The notes under the pieces are model-generated. The model was not told the origin of the DNA and ran no database searches. It saw only the letters and a program-made list of their open reading frames with translations. The position numbers and the translations under genes are program-made. 32,999 bases of DNA. Source: a virus (lineage: Duplodnaviria; Heunggongvirae; Uroviricota; Caudoviricetes). The stretch lies in IMG/VR virus record IMGVR_UViG_2703718851_000003. One strand, given 5' to 3'. Of this stretch, positions 1,958-28,375 are shown one piece after another. The stretch's first letter is position 1; each line of letters begins with the position of its first letter.

Positions 1958-4405
1958 TTAACCGTCATGCATCATGCTGGCACGGGCGCGCGCACGTTTA
2001 TCCCGCTCGTATTTTTCGAGCGCATCCTGTAACTGGCGGTCAAGCTGTGTTCCCGGCGCAGTACCGCCCGTCAGGTTGATGTGATATTCGTTTTTACTCT
2101 GGTCCACATAAGAGCGACCAGCCGGTGCCGTGACCGGCTGATAAGCCTGATAGCCTGCATAAGAGCTGGTCGCCGGAATATAACCACCGGTGCCATACGT
2201 GGCGGCATGAGTCCTTGCGGCGGTCTGGTCAAGTGTGTCTGACTCTTTGTTGATAACACCGAGTTTTTCCAGTACCCAGTCAATACCGCTGCGCAGTTTG
2301 TTGAACGCATTAAGCGGCAGCATCAGCGCGTCAGCCAGTGCCTGCCCGAACATGACGCCCGTGTCACGGCAACGGTTCAGGGTGTCCTGGGTGGCTTTGA
2401 CCGGGGCAATCAGGTTTTTAAACCACTGCCACGCGGCCTGTAACTTTTCGCCCAGCCAGTCAAACACCGGTTTCAGTGGCGTGAACAGCTCCCCCACCGG
2501 CGCAAATGCCGCTTTCAGCCCTTCAACCACACCGCCAAAGAATGCGCTGACAGGCCCCCAGTATTTACGGATAAGCAACGCCCCGGCGACAATGGCGGCC
2601 ACCACAGCCACAACCGGCCAGCTAATCGCCCCGATGGCCGTCATAACGGCACTACCAACCGTCGTGAAGATTGCCCCCATTGCGCCTGCTGCCGCGATGA
2701 TGGCATTGATGCCGGTGATAACCGGCCAGGCTACAAGACCAATTGCACCGATGATGCCAGTAAGCGCCAGCGCACCACCGGCAATGAGGCCAATGGTTGA
2801 CGCCAGTGATTTGTTTTTCTGTATCCAGCCGTCGAGTTTTAACACATACTTTGTGGCCGTCTGCGTGAGCTTACGCAGCGCGCCTTCCTGCTGGTCAAAC
2901 AGGTCAGTCCCCACCGCCTCATAAGCGGACTGAAACTCCTTAAAGTCACCGCCGAGGTTATCCTGCATGATTTTAACCAGCTCTTCCGTTTTACCGTCCG
3001 AGGCTTTCAGCGTGGCGGTCAGCGTATCCAGTTTTCCGCTTGCTGCCGCTGCCAGTAAAACGTTCGCTGATTTCAGGGCTTCCTCACCAAAAATGGTTTT
3101 AAGGTATTCCCCCTTCTGAGACGTTCCCAGCTTGTGTTTATCAAAGCTGGCCTGAATCTCTTTCAGAATGGTGAACAACGGGCGCATATTTCCCTTTTTG
3201 TCCGAGGTTTTAACGCCAAGCTCTTTGAGTGCATCCCATGCTTTCCCTGTCGGAGCCTGTAATCGGGTGACAACGGCACTGCTACCCGTACCCGCCATTG
3301 ACCCCCTGATGTTATTGTCATGCAGCACACCTGTCATGGCTGCTGCCTGCTCAAGACTTACACCTGCCGTCTTCGCAACCGGGCCGAGATAAGTCAGTGC
3401 ATCACTGAGTCCCTGAAAATCAGCCGCCGACTTATTCATCGTTGCCGACAACACGTCGCCCACATGACTGACATCATCATTTGACAGTTGAAAGGATGCC
3501 TTAGTCCCCAGCAACAGTTGCGCGTTTTCTTCCATCGACCGCTGATTCGCCAGTGCCATATTCAGCGTGACCGGCGTTGCCGCCTGAATAGCCGCAGCAT
3601 CTCCACCGGCTTTCGCAATGATAATCTGTGCACCGGCTGCATCATCCGCCGAGGCGGCAGTATTGTCACCGAGCTGGCGCGCCTGCTTGCGGAGTGCGGC
3701 CATTTCGGCGGAGTCTTTTGCCACGCCGAGCACGGCCTGCAATTCTGAGTTTTTCTGCGCAAACTCATAACCGGGCATCAGCAACTTAACACCGGCCATC
3801 GTTCCCGCCGCCGCAATCCCCACACCGGCAGCGCCCACTGAGGCCATAGTTCCGGCCAGTTCCTTTCCGGCCTGATAACGCTGTTTTACTGCGTTAAGTT
3901 TTGCCTGTTGCGCACTGACACGCGCCAGCGCGTCACGCTGCCGGTTAAGCTGCGCGGTGGTTTCACTGATACGGTTTTTCAGCCCCTGCTCATCATGTGC
4001 AAGATTGCGGGTATTAATTCCCACAGCAGCCAGTTCCCGCTGCTGGCGTTTAACGGAATCCGTCAGGCGGTTATATTTCGCCTGTAAGTCCTCCGCTGCT
4101 CGCTTTGCGGATTCCAGCACTTTCGCCTGAGCACGGGTCGGACGCTCGGTGTTTTTAAACTGTGTGGCAAGGGCTTCGGCCTCCTGCCGTGCCTTTTCAA
4201 GTGCATGACCAGTCACGGCGAGCTGTGCACTGGTCTTGCGGAATCCCTCAATACGGGATGCCTGACCGTTCAGCTCGCGCAGTGATTTTTGTGTTTCCCG
4301 GATATCACCCGACAGCGACCTGCTCGCTGTACGGATGGATTTAAACGGGCGGGATGCCTGGTCAACAGCCCTGAGCAATACCTGTAATTTTACATTGTCA
4401 CTCAT
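1958..4405 (-). CDS. T: Tail tape measure protein T
   Basis: 815-aa ORF, Ala/Gly-rich with a central hydrophobic stretch typical of tape measure proteins; start MSDNVKLQ overlaps the E' stop; same length as P2 gpT. Confidence 0.92.
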   Translation of the reverse strand: MSDNVKLQVLLRAVDQASRPFKSIRTASRSLSGDIRETQKSLRELNGQASRIEGFRKTSAQLAVTGHALEKARQEAEALATQFKNTERPTRAQAKVLESAKRAAEDLQAKYNRLTDSVKRQQRELAAVGINTRNLAHDEQGLKNRISETTAQLNRQRDALARVSAQQAKLNAVKQRYQAGKELAGTMASVGAAGVGIAAAGTMAGVKLLMPGYEFAQKNSELQAVLGVAKDSAEMAALRKQARQLGDNTAASADDAAGAQIIIAKAGGDAAAIQAATPVTLNMALANQRSMEENAQLLLGTKASFQLSNDDVSHVGDVLSATMNKSAADFQGLSDALTYLGPVAKTAGVSLEQAAAMTGVLHDNNIRGSMAGTGSSAVVTRLQAPTGKAWDALKELGVKTSDKKGNMRPLFTILKEIQASFDKHKLGTSQKGEYLKTIFGEEALKSANVLLAAAASGKLDTLTATLKASDGKTEELVKIMQDNLGGDFKEFQSAYEAVGTDLFDQQEGALRKLTQTATKYVLKLDGWIQKNKSLASTIGLIAGGALALTGIIGAIGLVAWPVITGINAIIAAAGAMGAIFTTVGSAVMTAIGAISWPVVAVVAAIVAGALLIRKYWGPVSAFFGGVVEGLKAAFAPVGELFTPLKPVFDWLGEKLQAAWQWFKNLIAPVKATQDTLNRCRDTGVMFGQALADALMLPLNAFNKLRSGIDWVLEKLGVINKESDTLDQTAARTHAATYGTGGYIPATSSYAGYQAYQPVTAPAGRSYVDQSKNEYHINLTGGTAPGTQLDRQLQDALEKYERDKRARARASMMHDG

Positions 4406-19998: not shown

Positions 19999-20171
19999 TG
20001 TCAGGAGTCCTGAATAGTGATTAGAGGAGTCACATGTCGGCATCAGTTTCCCGACGATGCGCATCCTCCGCCATCAGTCCCGGATGGCTTATCACTGACA
20101 CAACAGCACCTTAGCGAATCGCGGGGCGCGACTCAGTAGCCTTGCCGTGTATTCATCACGGCGAGGTATTC

Positions 20172-21944
20172 ATGACCATCACCACAGACACCACTCTTTT
20201 ACACGACCCGCGTCGTCAGGCGGCGCTGCTGTACTGGCAGGGGTTTTCCGTGCCGCAGATTGCCGCCATGTTGCAGATGAAACGCCCGACGGTGCAGAGC
20301 TGGAAACAGCGCGACGGCTGGGACAGCGTTGCCCCCATCAGCCGTGTCGAAATGAGTCTGGAAGCGCGGCTGACCCAGCTCATCATCAAACCGCAGAAAA
20401 CCGGCGGTGACTTCAAGGAAATTGACCTGCTGGGACGCCAGATTGAACGACTGGCACGGGTAAACCGTTACAGTCAGACCGGCAACGAGGCAGACCTTAA
20501 TCCGAACGTCGCTAACCGCAACAAAGGCGGGCGGCGCAAACCGAAAAAGAATTTTTTCAGTGACGAGGCCATCGAAAAGCTGGAGCAGATTTTCTTTGAG
20601 CAGTCTTTCGAATATCAGCTGCACTGGTATCGCGCCGGGCTTGAGCACCGCATCCGCGATATCCTGAAATCCCGCCAGATTGGCGCGACGTTTTATTTTT
20701 CCCGCGAGGCGCTGCTGCGCGCCCTGAAAACCGGCCATAACCAGATTTTTCTGTCGGCCAGTAAAACGCAGGCGTATGTGTTCCGCGAATACATCATCGC
20801 CTTTGCCCGTCTGGTTGACGTTGACCTGACCGGTGACCCGATTGTCCTGGGCAATAACGGTGCAAAACTGATTTTTCTCGGCACCAACTCCAACACCGCA
20901 CAGAGCCATAACGGCGACCTGTACGTCGATGAGATTTTCTGGATCCCGAATTTTCAGGTACTGCGTAAGGTGGCATCAGGTATGGCCTCACAGAGTCACC
21001 TGCGCTCGACCTATTTCTCCACCCCGTCCACGCTGGCGCACGACGCCTACCCGTTCTGGTCGGGTGAACTGTTCAACCGGGGACGCGCCAGCGCCGCCGA
21101 ACGCGTGGAAATCGACGTCAGTCATAACGCCCTTGCCGGAGGTCTTCTCTGTGCGGACGGCCAGTGGCGGCAGATTGTCACCATTGAGGACGCCCTGAAA
21201 GGCGGCTGCACGCTGTTCGACATTGAGCAGCTCAAACGCGAAAACAGCGCCGACGATTTTAAAAACCTGTTCATGTGTGAATTTGTTGACGACAAGGCAT
21301 CGGTGTTCCCGTTCGAGGAGCTGCAACGCTGCATGGTCGACACACTGGAAGAATGGGAAGACTATGCGCCGTTTGCCGCCAATCCGTTCGGCTCCCGCCC
21401 GGTATGGATTGGTTACGACCCGTCACACCGTGGCGACAGCGCCGGATGCGTGGTGCTGGCACCGCCGGTGGTGGCCGGTGGCAAATTCAGAATACTTGAG
21501 CGTCACCAGTGGAAAGGCATGGACTTTGCCACCCAGGCTGAATCCATCCGCAAACTCACCGAAAAATACAACGTCGAATACATCGGAATTGATGCCACCG
21601 GCCTCGGTGTCGGCGTGTTCCAGCTCGTGCGCTCGTTCTATCCCGCCGCGCGTGATATCCGCTACACGCCGGAAATGAAAACCGCAATGGTGCTCAAGGC
21701 AAAAGACGTTATCCGCCGTGGCTGTCTGGAATACGACGTCAGCGCCACCGACATCACCAGCTCGTTTATGGCTATCCGCAAGACCATGACCAGCAGCGGA
21801 CGCAGCGCCACCTATGAGGCCAGCCGCAGCGAGGAAGCCAGCCACGCCGACCTCGCCTGGGCGACCATGCACGCCCTGTTAAATGAGCCACTCACCGCCG
21901 GTATCAGCACCCCGCTGACATCCACCATTCTGGAGTTTTACTGA
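20172..21944 (+). CDS. P: Terminase large (ATPase) subunit P
   Basis: Track ORF trimmed to the ATG at 20172, giving 590 aa (MTITTDTTLLHDP...); GAGG Shine-Dalgarno; length as P2 gpP. Confidence 0.9.
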   Translation: MTITTDTTLLHDPRRQAALLYWQGFSVPQIAAMLQMKRPTVQSWKQRDGWDSVAPISRVEMSLEARLTQLIIKPQKTGGDFKEIDLLGRQIERLARVNRYSQTGNEADLNPNVANRNKGGRRKPKKNFFSDEAIEKLEQIFFEQSFEYQLHWYRAGLEHRIRDILKSRQIGATFYFSREALLRALKTGHNQIFLSASKTQAYVFREYIIAFARLVDVDLTGDPIVLGNNGAKLIFLGTNSNTAQSHNGDLYVDEIFWIPNFQVLRKVASGMASQSHLRSTYFSTPSTLAHDAYPFWSGELFNRGRASAAERVEIDVSHNALAGGLLCADGQWRQIVTIEDALKGGCTLFDIEQLKRENSADDFKNLFMCEFVDDKASVFPFEELQRCMVDTLEEWEDYAPFAANPFGSRPVWIGYDPSHRGDSAGCVVLAPPVVAGGKFRILERHQWKGMDFATQAESIRKLTEKYNVEYIGIDATGLGVGVFQLVRSFYPAARDIRYTPEMKTAMVLKAKDVIRRGCLEYDVSATDITSSFMAIRKTMTSSGRSATYEASRSEEASHADLAWATMHALLNEPLTAGISTPLTSTILEFY

Positions 21945-22978
21945 TGAGTAAGAAAAAAGGGAAAACACCGCAGCCAGCGGTGAAAACAATGACTGCCAGC
22001 GCCCCGAAAATGGAGGCATTCACCTTTGGTGAGCCGGTGCCGGTACTCGACCGCCGTGATATTCTGGATTACGTCGAGTGCATCAGTAACGGCAGATGGT
22101 ATGAGCCACCGGTCAGCTTTACCGGTCTGGCAAAAAGCCTGCGTGCTGCCGTGCATCACAGCTCACCGATTTACGTCAAACGTAATATTCTGGCCTCAAC
22201 GTTTATCCCGCACCCGTGGCTTTCCCAGCAGGATTTCAGCCGCTTTGTGCTGGATTTTCTGGTGTTCGGTAATGCGTTTCTGGAAAAGCGCTACAGCACT
22301 ACCGGTAAGGTCATCAGACTGGAAACCTCACCGGCAAAATATACCCGCCGTGGCGTGGAGGAGGATGTTTACTGGTGGGTGCCATCCTTCAACGAGCCGA
22401 CACCTTTCGCGCCCGGCTCCGTGTTTCACCTGCTGGAGCCGGATATCAATCAGGAGCTGTACGGCCTGCCGGAATATCTCAGCGCCCTTAACTCTGCCTG
22501 GCTGAATGAGTCGGCCACGCTGTTCCGCCGCAAGTATTACGAAAACGGCGCACATGCCGGATACATCATGTACGTCACCGATGCCGTGCAGGATCGCAAC
22601 GATATCGAAATGCTTCGCGAAAACATGGTGAAGTCGAAAGGCCGCAACAACTTTAAAAACCTGTTTCTCTACGCCCCACAGGGAAAAGCCGACGGTATTA
22701 AAATTATCCCGCTCAGTGAAGTGGCAACGAAGGACGATTTTTTTAATATCAAAAAAGCCAGCGCCGCAGACCTGCTGGACGCGCACCGCATCCCTTTTCA
22801 GTTGATGGGCGGCAAGCCGGAGAACGTCGGGTCGCTGGGTGATATTGAGAAAGTGGCAAAGGTCTTTGTCCGCAATGAGCTTATCCCGTTACAGGACAGG
22901 ATCCGCGAGATAAACGGCTGGCTCGGTCAGGAGGTCATCCGCTTTAAAAACTACTCACTGGACACTGACAACGGCTGA
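21944..22978 (+). CDS. Q: Portal protein Q
   Basis: 344-aa ORF; ATGA overlap with the P stop; followed by a terminator and cos; length as P2 gpQ. Confidence 0.92.
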   Translation: MSKKKGKTPQPAVKTMTASAPKMEAFTFGEPVPVLDRRDILDYVECISNGRWYEPPVSFTGLAKSLRAAVHHSSPIYVKRNILASTFIPHPWLSQQDFSRFVLDFLVFGNAFLEKRYSTTGKVIRLETSPAKYTRRGVEEDVYWWVPSFNEPTPFAPGSVFHLLEPDINQELYGLPEYLSALNSAWLNESATLFRRKYYENGAHAGYIMYVTDAVQDRNDIEMLRENMVKSKGRNNFKNLFLYAPQGKADGIKIIPLSEVATKDDFFNIKKASAADLLDAHRIPFQLMGGKPENVGSLGDIEKVAKVFVRNELIPLQDRIREINGWLGQEVIRFKNYSLDTDNG

Positions 22979-22983
22979 ACATC

Positions 22984-23005
22984 GCCGCCTGCGGGCGGCT
23001 TTTTT
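22984..23005 (+). terminator. Rho-independent terminator downstream of Q
   Basis: gccgcc-tgcg-ggcggc stem-loop followed by six T, starting 6 nt after the Q stop. Confidence 0.85.
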
Positions 23006-23147
23006 ACACCCCGTCATCACGCCCTCACACGCTCACCACCGCACAAAACAGCCCGCATACACACCAACGCCCCGGCGAACAATCCAAACGCCATCACGAC
23101 GCGCTCAGACGCTGAAAAAATAAAATCAGCACCACCGCCAGCGCGCA

Positions 23148-23166
23148 GTGCTTTCCCCGCCTCGCC
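23148..23166 (-). other. cos cohesive-end sequence (19 nt, P2-type)
   Basis: The minus strand reads GGCGAGGCGGGGAAAGCAC, which matches my recollection of the P2 cohesive end; it sits directly beyond Q, where cos lies in P2. Confidence 0.7.
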
Positions 23167-23322
23167 CGCCCGCTTCGTGGGGCTGTTTTAATGCAGTTGC
23201 ATGAACACTCCAAGAGCGCGCCAGCACTGGCGGCGCCCACACGTAACGGGGAAGGAAAACGCATGCGATTCGATGCAGTAATGCATGCGGAGCTGAAAAT
23301 GGCAGAAAATACTGAAAAACGC

Positions 23323-23352
23323 ATAAAAAACCGGCATTCAGGTTGCCGGTTT
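23323..23352 (-). terminator. Rho-independent terminator on the minus strand
   Basis: Minus strand AAACCGGCA-acctgaa-TGCCGGTT followed by TTTTTT; about 18 nt after the stop of the 33-aa hydrophobic ORF. Confidence 0.7.
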
Positions 23353-23370
23353 GAGTCAGCTTCATTGTGG

Positions 23371-23472
23371 TTACTTGTCGCGCAATGCGCCAATAATACT
23401 GGTAAGGCAACAAGTGGCAACAATCAGCAAAAAAACCGTCGTCCACGGATTTTCATAAACGAGAGATAACAT
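23371..23472 (-). CDS. Candidate 33-aa hydrophobic membrane peptide (MLSLVYENPWTTVFLLIVATCCLTSIIGALRDK)
   Basis: Below the ORF-track size cut-off; found by translating the minus strand. Single transmembrane-like helix, terminator right after the stop, weak and distant AGGA ribosome-binding site. Confidence 0.3.
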   Translation of the reverse strand: MLSLVYENPWTTVFLLIVATCCLTSIIGALRDK

Positions 23473-23488
23473 ATTGATAAAGATCCTT

Positions 23489-23620
23489 TTATTTGTTCAT
23501 TCTGATGTGGTTTAAAAGGTGTTTGATAACGACCGTAAGCTCATCTTTACTGGCTTGCTCGACCATTTTTTCGGTGTAGCTTTCCACTTCGCGGGAACTC
23601 AGGTCGTTATTTGAGGCCAT
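23489..23620 (-). CDS. Candidate small hydrophilic protein (43 aa from ATG 23620; 64 aa if started at 23683)
   Basis: In-frame portion of track ORF 23489..23770 that does not overlap the divergent 145-aa gene; ribosome-binding sites weak; coding status uncertain. Confidence 0.25.
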   Translation of the reverse strand: MASNNDLSSREVESYTEKMVEQASKDELTVVIKHLLNHIRMNK

Positions 23621-23681
23621 TACAGTGAGTCTCTTTGCCCAGTCGGCATAAGGGTCTTTAATTGATGAAAGGGAATTATGC

Positions 23682-24119
23682 ATGTCCAAAAACCTCGAAT
23701 TATTTAACCAGCAGACGGCTGAAATCTTTGCGGTGCTATGGGATAACTTTCCTGTACCACAAGTCATCACCTACAAAAAATTTAACGCCGCGTTACCTGA
23801 TGACTACTTTGACCAACTTAACTCACCGGAAATGAAAGCACTGAATCAGTTGCGTAGTGTGGTTGATGGCACATTCACTTTCCTAAGCGAAAACGGCTAT
23901 ATTCTGTACGGAACAGACCATCAGACCGGTTTTCATGATGTGCGCCTGACCGAGAAAGCACTCGCGGTGCTCAACAAAAAACCCGAAGCACTTGGCGGTA
24001 ATGAAACGATGGGAGATAAAATTATCAGTGCAGTAAAAGACGGGACTCCAGGTGTCATTGCTGGAGCAGTGACAAACCTGTTGACTCTTGGTGTTAATTT
24101 TGTGACGTCAGCTTCATAG
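23682..24119 (+). CDS. Hypothetical 145-aa protein with a C-terminal hydrophobic tail (accessory cargo)
   Basis: ATG start with AAGGG Shine-Dalgarno 8 nt upstream; no recognisable motif; C-terminus GTPGVIAGAVTNLLTLGVNFV is hydrophobic; convergent with the RT gene. Confidence 0.6.
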   Translation: MSKNLELFNQQTAEIFAVLWDNFPVPQVITYKKFNAALPDDYFDQLNSPEMKALNQLRSVVDGTFTFLSENGYILYGTDHQTGFHDVRLTEKALAVLNKKPEALGGNETMGDKIISAVKDGTPGVIAGAVTNLLTLGVNFVTSAS

Positions 24120-24145
24120 CTAACTACTTTCTGAGGTTTCTAATC

Positions 24146-24188
24146 AACGCCGCCTGCACCGAAAGTAAATTCCTGCACTGGCGGCGTT
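24146..24188. other. 9-bp inverted repeat (AACGCCGCC / GGCGGCGTT) with about 25-nt loop between the convergent 145-aa gene and the RT gene
   Basis: Read from the sequence; no U-run on either side, so terminator function is uncertain. Confidence 0.4.
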
Positions 24189-24243
24189 ACTAGCGCCAAA
24201 GTTATTTTATTTATTGATGCTATTATGCAATATATTCAATATG

Positions 24244-25194
24244 TTAATTTGCAGTATTAGCCTTTAAAGTAAGCACCTTAGATTTGTAACGTTGCTCAAT
24301 CACTCCCATTGAATGCAAACGACCAAAGAGCTTTTTGGCAATGATTGTTTCTCTCGCATTTTCGGCGTCTTTAATTATTTTCCAATAATCTATTTCCCTA
24401 GCCATCAAAAAATGCTGCTCATTCCTAACTTTTAATGCATTGCCTAATACAATAACTCCAGTTACCAACTTAGGCTTATCTCTGGCATATAGTTTTGTTT
24501 TCGTTGGGTGTATAACATGCCCATGCTTATTAACGATCTTACGAATTACAGCGCAGAACAATCGATTTACGTTACTACCTGAAAAAGTGAGATCATCAAC
24601 ATAAACAGTCATGTTAACTCGTAACTTTTGGCAAAGTTGATATATTTCACCAAACATTCTTGAATTTGCAAAATATGCCAACGGCATACTGATGCGACTA
24701 CCTGTTGGCAATCGGTCATGACAAGTACATATGTGGGACAAAACATCAGCAACATCAGATGACATTTTCATCACCGAAAAGAAAAAAGAAAATATCATCC
24801 CTCTTGTAGTTGATGGAAAAAAAGCTTTAATATCTGTTGTCATCATCTTTTCATTATTAAGATGAGCTTTAGCATTCGTCACATTAGAGCACTTCTTCTT
24901 CCCTGAGTGCAGATATTCTGGCAAAGCAATCCGCGATAACAAACTTGCAATTCGTGTATGTACAAGTTCTAGTTTTTCTAAAGGCTTTTGTATTTTTCGT
25001 GCTTTCCCTTTTTTAGAAAGCTGCTCAAAAACGGAATAGTTTCCTTCATCTTTTCTCAAAGAGTATAAATCATCAAGACTAACACAAAGCAAATTCGCCA
25101 GTTTTCTTTTACTTTTGAGTTTATAAAATGGCGAATCCATTATGTCATAAGATTTATTTTTAGTATTAACTTTAAGCTTTTTCCGTTTTTTCAT
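24244..25194 (-). CDS. Reverse transcriptase, short retron-like type (no C-terminal effector domain)
   Basis: 316-aa ORF with RT motifs in canonical order: NAKAHLNN, DIKAFFPS (motif A), LPTGSRISMPLAYF (motif B), YVDD (motif C), then KLVTGVIV (the VTG triplet typical of retron RTs). Pattern resembles the Ec86 retron RT as I recall it. Confidence 0.85.
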   Translation of the reverse strand: MKKRKKLKVNTKNKSYDIMDSPFYKLKSKRKLANLLCVSLDDLYSLRKDEGNYSVFEQLSKKGKARKIQKPLEKLELVHTRIASLLSRIALPEYLHSGKKKCSNVTNAKAHLNNEKMMTTDIKAFFPSTTRGMIFSFFFSVMKMSSDVADVLSHICTCHDRLPTGSRISMPLAYFANSRMFGEIYQLCQKLRVNMTVYVDDLTFSGSNVNRLFCAVIRKIVNKHGHVIHPTKTKLYARDKPKLVTGVIVLGNALKVRNEQHFLMAREIDYWKIIKDAENARETIIAKKLFGRLHSMGVIEQRYKSKVLTLKANTAN

Positions 25195-25492
25195 TTTTAT
25201 TACTTACCCACTCCAGAACATCCAGAACTTTACCGGCTAAATTTAAACGCAATCGCTTAGACAAACGGCCTTGCGTGCCTAATGATTCCGAAAAGAATAC
25301 TAAAGAGGATACTGGTATGTCGAAATGGGAGGCGTAACGCTCTAAGACTTCAATCGACGGTGACCAAACTCCGCTTTCAAGCGATACTATTTTGTCTTTT
25401 GGAATACCTAAAGATGAAGATAACTCAACTATTGATTCTTTATGGTATTGCCTTATTAAACGAAGGGCTTTATGTAACATAGGCAACTCCAT
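25172..25492 (-). CDS. Xre/Cro-type helix-turn-helix protein, overlapping the RT start (start may be the ATG at 25480, GGAG ribosome-binding site)
   Basis: 106-aa ORF; HTH segment ...ESIVELSSSLGIPKDKIVSLESG...; 23-nt overlap with the RT ORF suggests translational coupling. Confidence 0.75.
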   Translation of the reverse strand: MELPMLHKALRLIRQYHKESIVELSSSLGIPKDKIVSLESGVWSPSIEVLERYASHFDIPVSSLVFFSESLGTQGRLSKRLRLNLAGKVLDVLEWVSNKNEKTEKA

Positions 25493-25516
25493 GCTATTGA
25501 AACTAGGGAGGACGCA

Positions 25517-25672
25517 TTACTCATCACCCCCTTCGAAGTAGTCCAGTGCTCGAGTAACTAAATCAAACAGTCTAATACCCCATTTGATTAATTTCCAAGC
25601 GTAACCAGCCCACTTTTTCAGGTTTGACTTGTTCTGCGCCTGCTGTTCGTTGGTTAATTTATCATTCTTCAT
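25517..25672 (-). CDS. 51-aa small protein (MKNDKLTNEQQAQNKSNLKKWAGYAWKLIKWGIRLFDLVTRALDYFEGGDE), first ORF of the RT operon
   Basis: Internal ATG of track ORF 25517..25909 preceded by a strong AAGGAG Shine-Dalgarno at 6-nt spacing; the Shine-Dalgarno is embedded in the 3' arm of a hairpin. Confidence 0.5.
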   Translation of the reverse strand: MKNDKLTNEQQAQNKSNLKKWAGYAWKLIKWGIRLFDLVTRALDYFEGGDE

Positions 25673-25980
25673 GATTTGCTCCTTATGCCCATAGTGTGCA
25701 AACGGTATGTCTGCTCCAACACTATGGTTCGCCCTCATAAGGATGAGATTGAACAGCACTAGCCCCCTGCTCCACGAACCCTTGGTCGCCCAAAGGGTTC
25801 GAATACCCATACGCCATACCTCCTGATCCTGTGACTCCTGTCGCTGGCAGGGGCGTTGCGCGGGGTAAGTGTTAGAAAGCGTTAACTTTCCACGGGTAAA
25901 AATACCCAATTGATGGCGATATATCTCACTAACTAACCAATGTTTGCATCATAACAAGTAAACCGTTGTATTTGCTCCCC
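25673..25980 (-). ncRNA. Candidate structured non-coding RNA / leader of the RT operon (possible retron msr-msd-like or DRT-type template RNA)
   Basis: Series of stem-loops on the minus strand: GGGTA-TTTT-TACCC, GAAAG-TTAACG-CTTTC, an 8-bp stem at 25776..25800, and a composite 7+8-bp hairpin at 25681..25742. 12-bp inverted repeat GGTTTACTTGTT (25964..25953) / AACAAGTCAAACC (25633..25621). No protein-coding potential seen. Confidence 0.35.
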
Positions 25981-26008
25981 CTGTATATGATATTTTTTCA
26001 TATAAAAC

Positions 26009-26037
26009 AAATATATAGTAACTTAAAGGCATATCAA
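26009..26037 (-). promoter_or_regulatory. Candidate sigma70 promoter for the RT module, about 45 nt downstream of the A stop
   Basis: Minus strand TTGATA (-35, 26037..26032), 16-17 nt spacer, TATATT (-10) in an AT-rich block. Confidence 0.35.
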
Positions 26038-26080
26038 TGCGACATGGATATGCTTTCATTGCATTGAATTTTAAAGTGTT

Positions 26081-28375
26081 TTACATGAAAAATGACACTT
26101 CATCTTGAAATCCGAACCACTCATTAGTAACCATATACGTGAATTTTTTCCCGTCATAATTTACGGTTGCCCCACGCGCCAGCGCCTCAATCTCCCATCG
26201 CTGAGGCCTGATACCGTTCTGAGCAAGGTCAACGCGGATACGGGTAATTTGCATTCGTTCCGACCGGGTCAGTCTGGCCGATGGCGCTATTTCATGTGGT
26301 TTTAACGGGCTTCCGTTTCTTTGCTGGCGATTTGGTCTTCTCAGTCCGTGTTTTAATGCACCCCTGAGCGCCCTCACAACCTCCGGGTCATTCCATTCGA
26401 TAACACCGTCATCTACCAGATTAAGCACTGCTGCGGCGTGTTCAGAAGGTGTGGGAGCCGGTAACGAAGCATCACTGCTGGCAGGCTTTCCACAGTTATT
26501 GACAGGACTCCGAGGCGCGGCGATGCCGCTTTTTAAAGTCAAAGGCTCAACGACCGGCACTTTCGGCACAATGCGCCAGTCCGTGGTTCTGGTGATATGA
26601 ATATGACGCGCGCCGAGATGCGGCGCGTAAATGCCGACCACTCTCTCGACTTCTTCCTCGTACTCGTTAACGTCATCCGACGGGCTACGGGCGACCCTGA
26701 CAGTCTGACAATCGCGCGGAACATTTGCCCCACCCTGCGCGCTGATATACAACGCAAAATCACCACTGTCTGCGGCGGCGCGTGCAGCCTCGACGCGCTC
26801 GTCAAACTCATCAGCAATGCTGACGCCGCGAGGCAATTTGCGTAGTTCACGGTAAGCCCCCATTGTCGGCAGGCCAACCGTTTTAAATTGCGGGATGCGC
26901 CACGTTGACGCCCATGCGGTAACAGCCGCCGCTGTGTCTTTCAGCGGCCTGCCGGTATCGTTATCGAGCTGACCATCCAGTGCATAGCCGTCGATGTTTT
27001 TTGAGATGTATTTCGCGATATACCCCGCAGCACCGCCCCGGTTAAGGTGTTTCGCCTGAAAACGGTTTCGCGCGGCTCCTCTTTCGTCGCCATCCTCTTT
27101 GAGCGCGTAGCGACGCATGATTTCGATAATCTGGTTACGCTGGCGCGGATTACAAAAAAGCATCATATGCCAGTGCGGCGTTCCGTCGTGGTGTGGCTCG
27201 ACGACACGCAAACCGTAGACCTGTAAATCATTATCCTTGAATGCCGTGCGCATCAGGCTCCAGATACGGCAGAGATAACGCTGCGCATCCTTTGGATTAA
27301 ATGCCTCATCGTTCCAGCCGTGATTAAGCTGCACGGTTTTACTTTCGCCTTTTCCGACCTGACGTGTCGGGTGATACTTTGACGGCGCGGTCAGCGTGAT
27401 AAACATCCCCACATCACCCTCTGCGGCGGCGTAACGCTCAATACCGGCAATGGTGTTCATCAGCTCCATCCGGCGAATTTCAGGATTAGAAATACTGCCC
27501 ATCACCTTACTGATAAGGTCGATGCGCTCGCCGGTTTCCCTGTTTTCGAGGTCACACGATTTAAGAAATTCCAGATTTGCCTGGCGGCGCGCACGCACAT
27601 CACGAATGGCATGTTTACTGGCATAAGGAGAACGGTCTTTATTGACCTCCCCGACAGCTATCAGTAACGCCTCATGCCAGCGCATACGCTGGCCTTTAAG
27701 CTGATGAGTCCACCACTCATCGTTAAACAGGCGGGCAATGGCAGAATATGCCTGCCTCGTGGTCATCTGTCCTTTACGGTATTTTTTCCAGTAGAGAGGG
27801 GAAATATTGAAAGCACGTGCAGCGCCAGCAACATGACCATACAGGTGAGCCTGCGCCTCATCCGTAAACAGCGATTCTTTTTCGCCATGCGCATCCACCC
27901 AGGCATCGCTGAGTTCCTCATACATCATGAAAAGCTGCGATGAGATACGGGCGGCAAACTTTTTCAGCTCCTTGTCATTCATTCCCGGCAGGCGCGCATA
28001 GTGGTCACGCTCTGCCAGAAACAGCAACGACGCGTCGGTGTTCATTTCATGGCGCTGATTCACACGCTCAATGCGCGGCCATAAACGACGCTGAAAAGTG
28101 GATGTGAGGAAATAAAACCCGTGCACCGGGCTTTTATTGCGCCGGATGTAGTCATAGCGTGAAGTAAACAGCGAGCGCAAAAAGTAAGGCAGGCGGTTAA
28201 TCGTGGATAAAACACCTTGCACCTGACGCATCTCGTCACGTGTAAGGGGTCTTTCGCGCCCGACGGCCTCGCGTGGCGCGTTCCATGCATAAGCACCGGT
28301 AAACGCCTTACCGGTGCCTGCAGCAAATGCTGACGGAGGTACGCAGGTGTATTGCTCCTGGAAAGAATGACTCAT
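26081..28375 (-). CDS. A: Rolling-circle replication initiator A
   Basis: 764-aa ORF (P2 gpA is about 761 aa as I recall); last gene of the early operon; ATGA overlap with the upstream PP-loop gene. Confidence 0.9.
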   Translation of the reverse strand: MSHSFQEQYTCVPPSAFAAGTGKAFTGAYAWNAPREAVGRERPLTRDEMRQVQGVLSTINRLPYFLRSLFTSRYDYIRRNKSPVHGFYFLTSTFQRRLWPRIERVNQRHEMNTDASLLFLAERDHYARLPGMNDKELKKFAARISSQLFMMYEELSDAWVDAHGEKESLFTDEAQAHLYGHVAGAARAFNISPLYWKKYRKGQMTTRQAYSAIARLFNDEWWTHQLKGQRMRWHEALLIAVGEVNKDRSPYASKHAIRDVRARRQANLEFLKSCDLENRETGERIDLISKVMGSISNPEIRRMELMNTIAGIERYAAAEGDVGMFITLTAPSKYHPTRQVGKGESKTVQLNHGWNDEAFNPKDAQRYLCRIWSLMRTAFKDNDLQVYGLRVVEPHHDGTPHWHMMLFCNPRQRNQIIEIMRRYALKEDGDERGAARNRFQAKHLNRGGAAGYIAKYISKNIDGYALDGQLDNDTGRPLKDTAAAVTAWASTWRIPQFKTVGLPTMGAYRELRKLPRGVSIADEFDERVEAARAAADSGDFALYISAQGGANVPRDCQTVRVARSPSDDVNEYEEEVERVVGIYAPHLGARHIHITRTTDWRIVPKVPVVEPLTLKSGIAAPRSPVNNCGKPASSDASLPAPTPSEHAAAVLNLVDDGVIEWNDPEVVRALRGALKHGLRRPNRQQRNGSPLKPHEIAPSARLTRSERMQITRIRVDLAQNGIRPQRWEIEALARGATVNYDGKKFTYMVTNEWFGFQDEVSFFM

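Follow-up and report, generated by a model that had tools for sequence, protein, structure and literature searches.

A predicted winged-helix gene beside a type VI retron of a P2-like prophage is coupled to a small divergent gene with an overlapping start codon

Gene Content of the gpA-cos Region

The stretch of DNA analyzed here (hereafter, the window; all 32,999 nucleotides of the IMG/VR virus record IMGVR_UViG_2703718851_000003) is a P2-like prophage in which the capsid genes, on the minus strand, are followed by the genes for terminase gpP and portal protein gpQ, the cos region, a cassette of two small genes together with a type VI retron, and the replication gene gpA (Table 1). In this region, the window is 99.8% identical to E. 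coli O157:H7 strains. Its plus-strand gene, ORF145, is located between gpA and cos/portal gene gpQ, that is, within the gpA-to-cos stretch that has been described as a variable "hotspot" of P2-like phages and in which exclusion genes reside, old and tin among them (Rousset et al. 2022, PMC9122126); WP_000042038 is among the arrangements compiled in Table S5A of that study (PMC9122126). The GC content of the window falls into three blocks, with 54-59% in the phage backbone, 40-48% in the cassette, and 31-38% in the retron. The leftmost ~65 bp of the block that is shared by ORF145 loci with different neighbors correspond to the cos region, which every P2-like locus shares, and phages Midge and FSL SP-004 have their genome ends close to positions 23158-23185.

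Table 1. Positions of the genes and signals between the terminase gene and gpA in the window
Feature	Position	Strand	Basis
Terminase gpP	20142-21944	+	
Portal gpQ	21944-22978	+	
Cos-proximal block of ~1 kb, common to ORF145 loci with different neighbors	23141-24191	.	blastn boundaries
Terminator-like hairpin of orf64, followed by a T run, directly past the stop codon	23439-23462	-	
orf64, 64 aa, phrog_2454	23489-23683	-	E 4.3e-41
CATG, both divergent start codons overlapping head to head	23681-23684	.	sequence
ORF145, 145 aa plus stop, ATG start, acidic winged-helix protein (predicted fold), phrog_2266 family	23682-24119	+	
Perfect 9-bp inverted repeat (24146-24154/24180-24188, 25-nt loop) with overlapping small hairpin and U-rich tract	24146-24197	+	
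Type VI retron, SP-HTH-RT, outside the cassette	24244-25672	-	
RT	24244-25194	-	PADLOC RT_VI, 4e-105
HTH	25172-25492	-	PADLOC HTH_VI, 8e-31
SP candidate, 51 aa (MKNDKLTNEQ...), upstream of HTH-RT	25517-25672	-	
Replication gene gpA	26081-28375	-	

An 89-aa hypothetical protein (WP_001177885; phrog_6595) encoded at 23191-23469 on the plus strand was considered as a third gene of the cassette and rejected, its pN/pS being 0.6-1.2 and its frame being interrupted by in-frame stop codons in most of the homologous loci compared. This RefSeq-annotated frame is located within the cos-proximal region and looks noncoding.

ORF145 and orf64 Are Conserved Genes with Overlapping Start Codons

A previous reading of the window, made from the sequence alone, described ORF145 as a well-initiated ORF of 145 codons that is convergent with the RT gene and separated from the RT stop codon by an inverted repeat with a 9-bp stem. 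All these elements are present. The ATG is preceded, at a distance of 8 nt, by an AAGGG Shine-Dalgarno sequence (23669-23673), the gene has the boundaries proposed, and the RT ORF faces it from the opposite strand. In a comparison with six homologous loci of 81-95% nucleotide identity, ORF145 is free of stop codons, with pN/pS values of 0.01-0.14, and is a genuine gene under strong purifying selection. The inverted repeat beyond its stop codon is perfect and folds as an extended hairpin of -25 kcal/mol (z = -3.2 relative to shuffled sequences); together with the U-rich tract, this hairpin is the probable terminator of ORF145.

On its other side, ORF145 adjoins orf64, a divergently oriented gene that is also stop-free in homologous loci, has pN/pS values of 0.06-0.17, and is likewise a real gene under purifying selection. 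The start codons of the two genes overlap head to head within a single CATG tetranucleotide. Because this arrangement leaves no intergenic space, each Shine-Dalgarno sequence lies inside the first codons of the other gene, and each promoter has to be inside the other gene as well: the GAGG of orf64 (the complement of CCTC at 23693-23696) falls within the first codons of ORF145, and the AAGGG of ORF145 falls within those of orf64. Scanned for consensus promoters, the sequence shows no sigma-70-like site ahead of orf64 or ORF145.

Enterobacterial loci whose identity elsewhere is 70-85% hardly differ in the ~45 nt surrounding the CATG. When only amino acid-invariant codons are compared, codons 1-60 of ORF145 show less synonymous variation than the codons that follow (variant fraction 0.159 vs. 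0.274; Mann-Whitney p = 0.0017). The lowered variation in this segment (23684-23861) suggests an overlapping noncoding constraint, for example, signals for the expression of orf64; recombinational mosaicism could produce the same pattern.

ORF145 Belongs to a Widespread Phage Family and Is Recurrently Paired with a Small Divergent Gene

ORF145 had also been labeled an orphan with no recognizable motif, a characterization that does not hold. Residues 1-142 align with positions 1-143 of the 144 in the phrog_2266 profile (E 2.4e-61), that is, over the full length of the protein. A word-seeded search with ORF145 retrieved relatives solely from Enterobacteriaceae, nearly all of them more than 60% identical; an exhaustive profile search against 1.84 billion representatives yielded 664 clusters (defined at 50% identity) with E values of 1e-3 or better. 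Among the best 150 of these 664 clusters, nearly all consist of proteins of about 125-170 aa that match end to end, with a few shorter fragments. Scans of ORF145 and 40 family members against Pfam, NCBIfam, and PADLOC produced no significant match; a single member of the 40 scored against PADLOC WH_III-A (E 0.024), and for ORF145 itself the PADLOC scan returned 0 families. The homologs occupy differing positions in P2-like, Mu-like, and lambdoid phages, and the distribution of the family is phage "moron"-like.

ORF145 thus belongs to a catalogued family, phrog_2266, as orf64 does to phrog_2454, and what is new is its conserved association, head to head, with a small, divergently oriented gene. 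In the literature found, neither PHROG family is described as part of a head-to-head pair, the family of 664 clusters is not described either, and no functional study appears under the RefSeq accessions or on the topic of divergent genes with overlapping start codons.

In all 12 enterobacterial loci examined (L001-L007 and L032-L036; the loci compared are cited by L number where they have to be told apart), the start of orf64 is at position +1 relative to the start of ORF145, whatever the other neighbors are. Across the entire family, the CATG head-to-head arrangement was observed in 7 of the 12 sampled lineages, including homologs that are only 26-33% identical; the distant cases comprise L009/10, L016-19, L025, L028-30, L031, and the Mu-like phage PhiKM of the genus Bcepmuvirus. 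By a rough estimate, chance alone would give a C ahead of the ATG together with an opposite open frame of at least 60 codons in only a few percent of lineages. These observations show that ORF145 is coupled to orf64. The partner is not obligatory for the family, because it is absent in the remaining 5 lineages, in which the ORF145 homolog is part of a tail operon, a lambdoid nin/lysis region, or a Mu-like tail module or lies on contigs too short for the setting to be judged.

The minus-strand partners of the distant homologs encode 64-84 aa and, in one case, 153 aa. The distant partner proteins can be aligned with one another and have in common an AEAL/AEGL-like stretch, whose A-E pair is invariant, as well as a largely conserved Trp. 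The comparison of enterobacterial orf64 with these distant small partners by hhalign was not significant (probability 3.5%, P 0.012). Several of the distant partners (among L009, L016-L019, and L025) have Cys-rich ends (CCGCK, CCCKR, RRCCAYRG; CCxCK), which the enterobacterial 64-aa version lacks.

Predicted Fold of the ORF145 Protein

With a shallow alignment, AF2 modeled residues 1-98 of ORF145 as a winged helix and left the C-terminal helices uncertain or disordered. When the alignment included 146 diverse sequences, the whole chain was modeled with confidence (pLDDT 93.1, pTM 0.88). This deeper model contains helices 3-22 and 49-70, a β-hairpin wing (78-89), a helix at 91-98, and two C-terminal helices (110-120 and 123-144); it has the H-β-H-H-β-hairpin topology and is structurally similar to solved winged-helix domains. 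ORF145 is thus predicted to be a compact winged-helix protein whose last 35 residues are modeled, with confidence, as two helices. Sequence-profile searches of the PDB yielded only subthreshold winged-helix matches (MarR, YjcQ, and eS10), and a Foldseek search of BFVD returned nothing at E ≤ 1e-3.

The protein is acidic, with a pI of 4.87 and a net charge of -5 (-5.3 for the N-terminal domain), and so is the family, in which the median pI is 5.15 and 87% of the members are below 6. The conserved positions map mostly to the hydrophobic core and to the motifs NIxxFN, LYExFP, TxxWLxxxGYI, LTxKGL, PxSL, and GDxLxxAxKxG. The family alignment contains no conserved Lys or Arg in the recognition helix (H3) or in the wing, the latter being neutral to acidic.

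Within the winged-helix superfamily, the nearest sequence neighbor of ORF145 is the MarR family, though without a significant match. ORF145 might, then, be a divergent MarR-like dimeric transcription factor that binds around the overlapping starts and controls a switch between orf64 and ORF145, with the C-terminal helices forming the dimer interface. Such a role would fit the winged-helix fold, the length of 145 aa, which is that of MarR proteins, and the disorder of the C-terminal helices in the shallow model of the monomer. Two independent profile searches, moreover, align residues ~50-140, a segment beginning at the recognition helix and taking in the C-terminal helices, with MarR chains (6jbx, E 0.6; 3s2w, E 0.09), with all E values in the subthreshold range of 0.09-0.9. 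MarR-type regulators are typically divergent from their targets, and ORF145 is similarly divergent from orf64. However, no Pfam, NCBIfam, or PDB match is significant, the best PDB profile E value being the 0.09 cited above; one helix of the MarR core is absent; the acidic character of ORF145 and its family, along with the lack of conserved basic residues in the recognition helix and the wing, is at odds with this function; and the overlap of the start codons leaves no intergenic operator region. Protein-binding winged-helix domains, namely kleisin C-WHD, RPA32C, and cullin WHB, score against ORF145 as well as MarR does or better. On this balance, we consider a MarR-like regulator unlikely, although the subthreshold MarR alignments leave DNA binding by ORF145 possible.

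The hydrophobic C-terminal tail attributed to ORF145 (GTPGVIAGAVTNLLTLGVNFV) is present, but it is only borderline hydrophobic. The mean of its best 19-residue Kyte-Doolittle window, the measure used here, is 1.52, compared with a usual transmembrane threshold of 1.6. If the tail were a transmembrane anchor, ORF145 would be a tail-anchored inner-membrane protein acting in superinfection exclusion or abortive infection. The C-terminal segment GVIAGAVTNLLTLGVNFVT indeed includes a GxxxG motif, the tail is unpacked in the shallow AF2 model, and the gene is located in the P2 hotspot, from which the exclusion genes old and tin are known (PMC9122126). However, the tail contains two Asn residues, and the equivalent helix in the wider family is amphipathic and charged, with a median window value of 1.08 and only 2% of the members reaching at least 1.6. 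The deeper AF2 model, furthermore, packs helix 123-144 into the compact fold, with pLDDT above 90 and pTM 0.88. A tail-anchored exclusion protein thus appears improbable, and we take the modeled tail to be a helix with a structural or interface role in a soluble protein rather than a conserved membrane anchor. Peripheral membrane association, or an anchor specific to the clade of enterobacterial members, is possible.

The Cassette Is Independent of the Neighboring Type VI Retron

The physical neighbor of ORF145 in the window is a type VI retron, the type that includes Retron-Vpa2, Retron-Sen3, and Retron-Eco12, with the 51-aa SP candidate upstream of the HTH and RT genes. Type VI retrons were curated as RT+HTH only in Table S5B of Rousset et al. 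(2022, PMC9122126), and the HTH sequence given there is identical to that of the window from the fifth residue on. In the SP-HTH-RT architecture, SP, a small protein whose gene precedes HTH-RT, serves as the toxic effector (10.1101/2025.10.22.683967; 10.64898/2026.04.27.721009). L007 and L011-L013 all retain SP, HTH, and RT as a set. Judging from the analogous Retron-Vpa2 and Retron-Sen3, the ~400 bp between the SP gene and gpA (25673-26080) should hold the retron promoter and the msr-msd (hyRNA); an Rfam search of positions 23000-26200 found nothing meaningful, the sole match (BTnc060, E 0.45) being at chance level. A convergent gene of 145 aa is absent from the descriptions of type VI retrons found in the literature.

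The sequence-only reading offered two options for ORF145, an independent function or a role in the RT module as a partner or effector under separate regulation. In favor of the second option, considered here along with a role as an anti-toxin of the retron, ORF145 is adjacent to and convergent with RT not only in the window but also in Klebsiella phage ST147-VIM1phi7.1 and 29 genomes of E. coli. However, in the co-occurrence analysis of 5,426 complete E. coli genomes, in which a match had to cover at least 80% of the query and adjacency was assessed by a query spanning ORF145 and RT, ORF145 was found in 79 and the HTH+RT unit in 99, such that those 29 adjacent pairs leave 50 of the 79 ORF145 genomes without an adjacent retron and 70 of the 99 retron genomes without an adjacent ORF145. 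In one E. coli genome, ORF145 and the retron are present at two separate places. This double dissociation refutes an obligate partnership and amounts to the pattern, consistent absence from otherwise identical RT loci, that the sequence-only reading had named as evidence against one. In addition, the SP-HTH-RT unit is conserved without ORF145, its known effector, SP, is present, and members of the ORF145 family are encoded in phages with no RT nearby; among species-representative genomes, the retron RT occurs in 0 of 5 ORF145 loci.

The neighbors found when only one of the two modules is present also differ. The ORF145 loci that lack the retron contain a GNAT + AAA-ATPase system (L002), DinI (L003 and phage Midge, L005), an MBL-fold gene (L004), or Fic (phage FSL SP-004, L006). 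In retron-only loci, SP-HTH-RT is located beside an FRG-domain gene (L011 and phage P2_2H1, L012) or a gene for a 266-aa hypothetical protein (L013).

In most retron-bearing E. coli genomes, those of the ~79.5% identity class, the FRG-domain gene apparently replaces ORF145, as inspected in one genome and in P2_2H1.

Homology between the window and the retron-less loci L002, L005, and L006 extends through about 24188-24191, whereas the match of the retron-only loci begins at the RT stop codon at 24244 (24254 in L013). The hairpin at 24146-24197 is therefore part of the ORF145 cassette and not of the retron, because the homology of ORF145 loci without a retron passes through the inverted repeat, and the retron-only homology begins at the RT stop. 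ORF145 is outside the retron operon, on the opposite strand and convergent with RT, with its own terminator-like hairpin in between, and the two are statistically uncoupled. Because ORF145 is adjacent to the retron in only 29 of the 79 genomes that contain it, and because each module also occurs beside other genes, ORF145 is not a retron partner, and the cassette is independent of the retron. The claim of an independent function is borne out by the same features, that is, the separate orientation and hairpin, the distinct base composition, and the occurrence without the retron; a role as effector, partner, or anti-toxin is highly improbable. We conclude that the cassette occupies the cos-proximal edge of the gpA-cos hotspot and that the retron is separate cargo inserted beside it.

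The GenBank annotation of phage Midge (PV287706; HHpred 91%) points instead to an inhibitor of H-NS or RNA polymerase similar to T7 gp5.5/5.7, which are, like ORF145, small acidic phage proteins, but this assignment is hardly credible given that hhalign of the family profile yields probabilities of 0.1% against gp5.5 and 1.3% against gp5.7 and that there is neither a DUF2675 match in Pfam nor a structural match in BFVD.

Possible Role of the Two-Gene Cassette

The analysis shows that ORF145 is a genuine gene that does not belong to the type VI retron but forms one half of an autonomous two-gene accessory cassette, shared with orf64, in the gpA-cos hotspot; the overall reading that we build on this, including the proposals below, has a probability of roughly 60%. 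As for the function, the charge of the protein and the genomic context suggest a protein-binding winged-helix adaptor, as opposed to a classical DNA-binding repressor or a membrane anchor. Its ligand would be the product of orf64 and/or a host or phage protein, and its role would be in prophage accessory biology, that is, in conflicts among phages or between phage and host or in the regulation of the prophage. We consider this functional assignment plausible, at somewhat less than even odds.

The geometry of the locus implies a particular mode of expression. Because each promoter and each ribosome-binding site has to be inside the other gene, the mRNAs of orf64 and ORF145 would be complementary across both ribosome-binding sites, and expression of the two genes would be expected to be mutually antagonistic, through face-to-face promoters combined with antisense pairing. 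More tentatively, orf64 and ORF145 might represent an undescribed class of two-gene phage module, pairing an acidic winged-helix protein with a small helical one, in which the CATG-fused starts and the embedded signals would constitute a compact bistable or antisense-controlled switch governing a new defense, anti-defense, or exclusion activity, and which would have been kept from the P2-like phages of Enterobacteriaceae to distant P2-like and Mu-like phages. We rate this broader proposal as possible but rather doubtful.

Comparable arrangements are known. In the face-to-face promoter switches of P2 and 186 (Pe/Pc and pR/pL), and in 5'-overlapping antisense pairs such as those of type I toxin-antitoxin systems, the genes are likewise divergent, the transcripts overlap at their 5' ends, and mutual interference is expected. 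The likeness is one of analogy only: in the cassette, both partners are conserved protein-coding genes and the ATG codons themselves overlap. An interpretation of orf64/ORF145 as a type II toxin-antitoxin pair was considered and rejected, the genes being divergent with overlapping starts and not co-oriented.

These findings have both practical and general implications. The type VI retron of the window is complete as SP-HTH-RT, and constructs can therefore omit the convergent ORF145 gene. The analysis also brings to notice a widespread phage family of ~140-aa winged-helix proteins (by predicted fold) that has neither a Pfam family nor a functional annotation, and its recurrent divergent partner with an overlapping start codon represents an unusual gene arrangement. 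Given that, in experimental screens of the hotspot, a large share of the tested unknown genes proved antiviral, the cassette is a reasonable candidate for a defense, anti-defense, or regulatory module.

The cassette occupies the same gpA-to-cos/portal position as the known cargo of the P2 hotspot, including old, tin, and the defense systems of Rousset et al. (2022). Unlike typical cargo, which is swapped in and out, it is fixed in the cos-proximal position while the cargo to its left and right is exchanged. E. coli strain 2452 has an AAA-ATPase gene and a hypothetical gene between the portal gene and the cassette (L002, positions 2624-4371), and cargo can therefore enter on either side of it. 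In distant P2-like phages represented by IMG/VR contigs (L028-L030), in which gpA is only ~30% identical, the homologous pair adjoins gpA at the genome end, and the cos-proximal position of the pair therefore appears to have been kept over large evolutionary distances.
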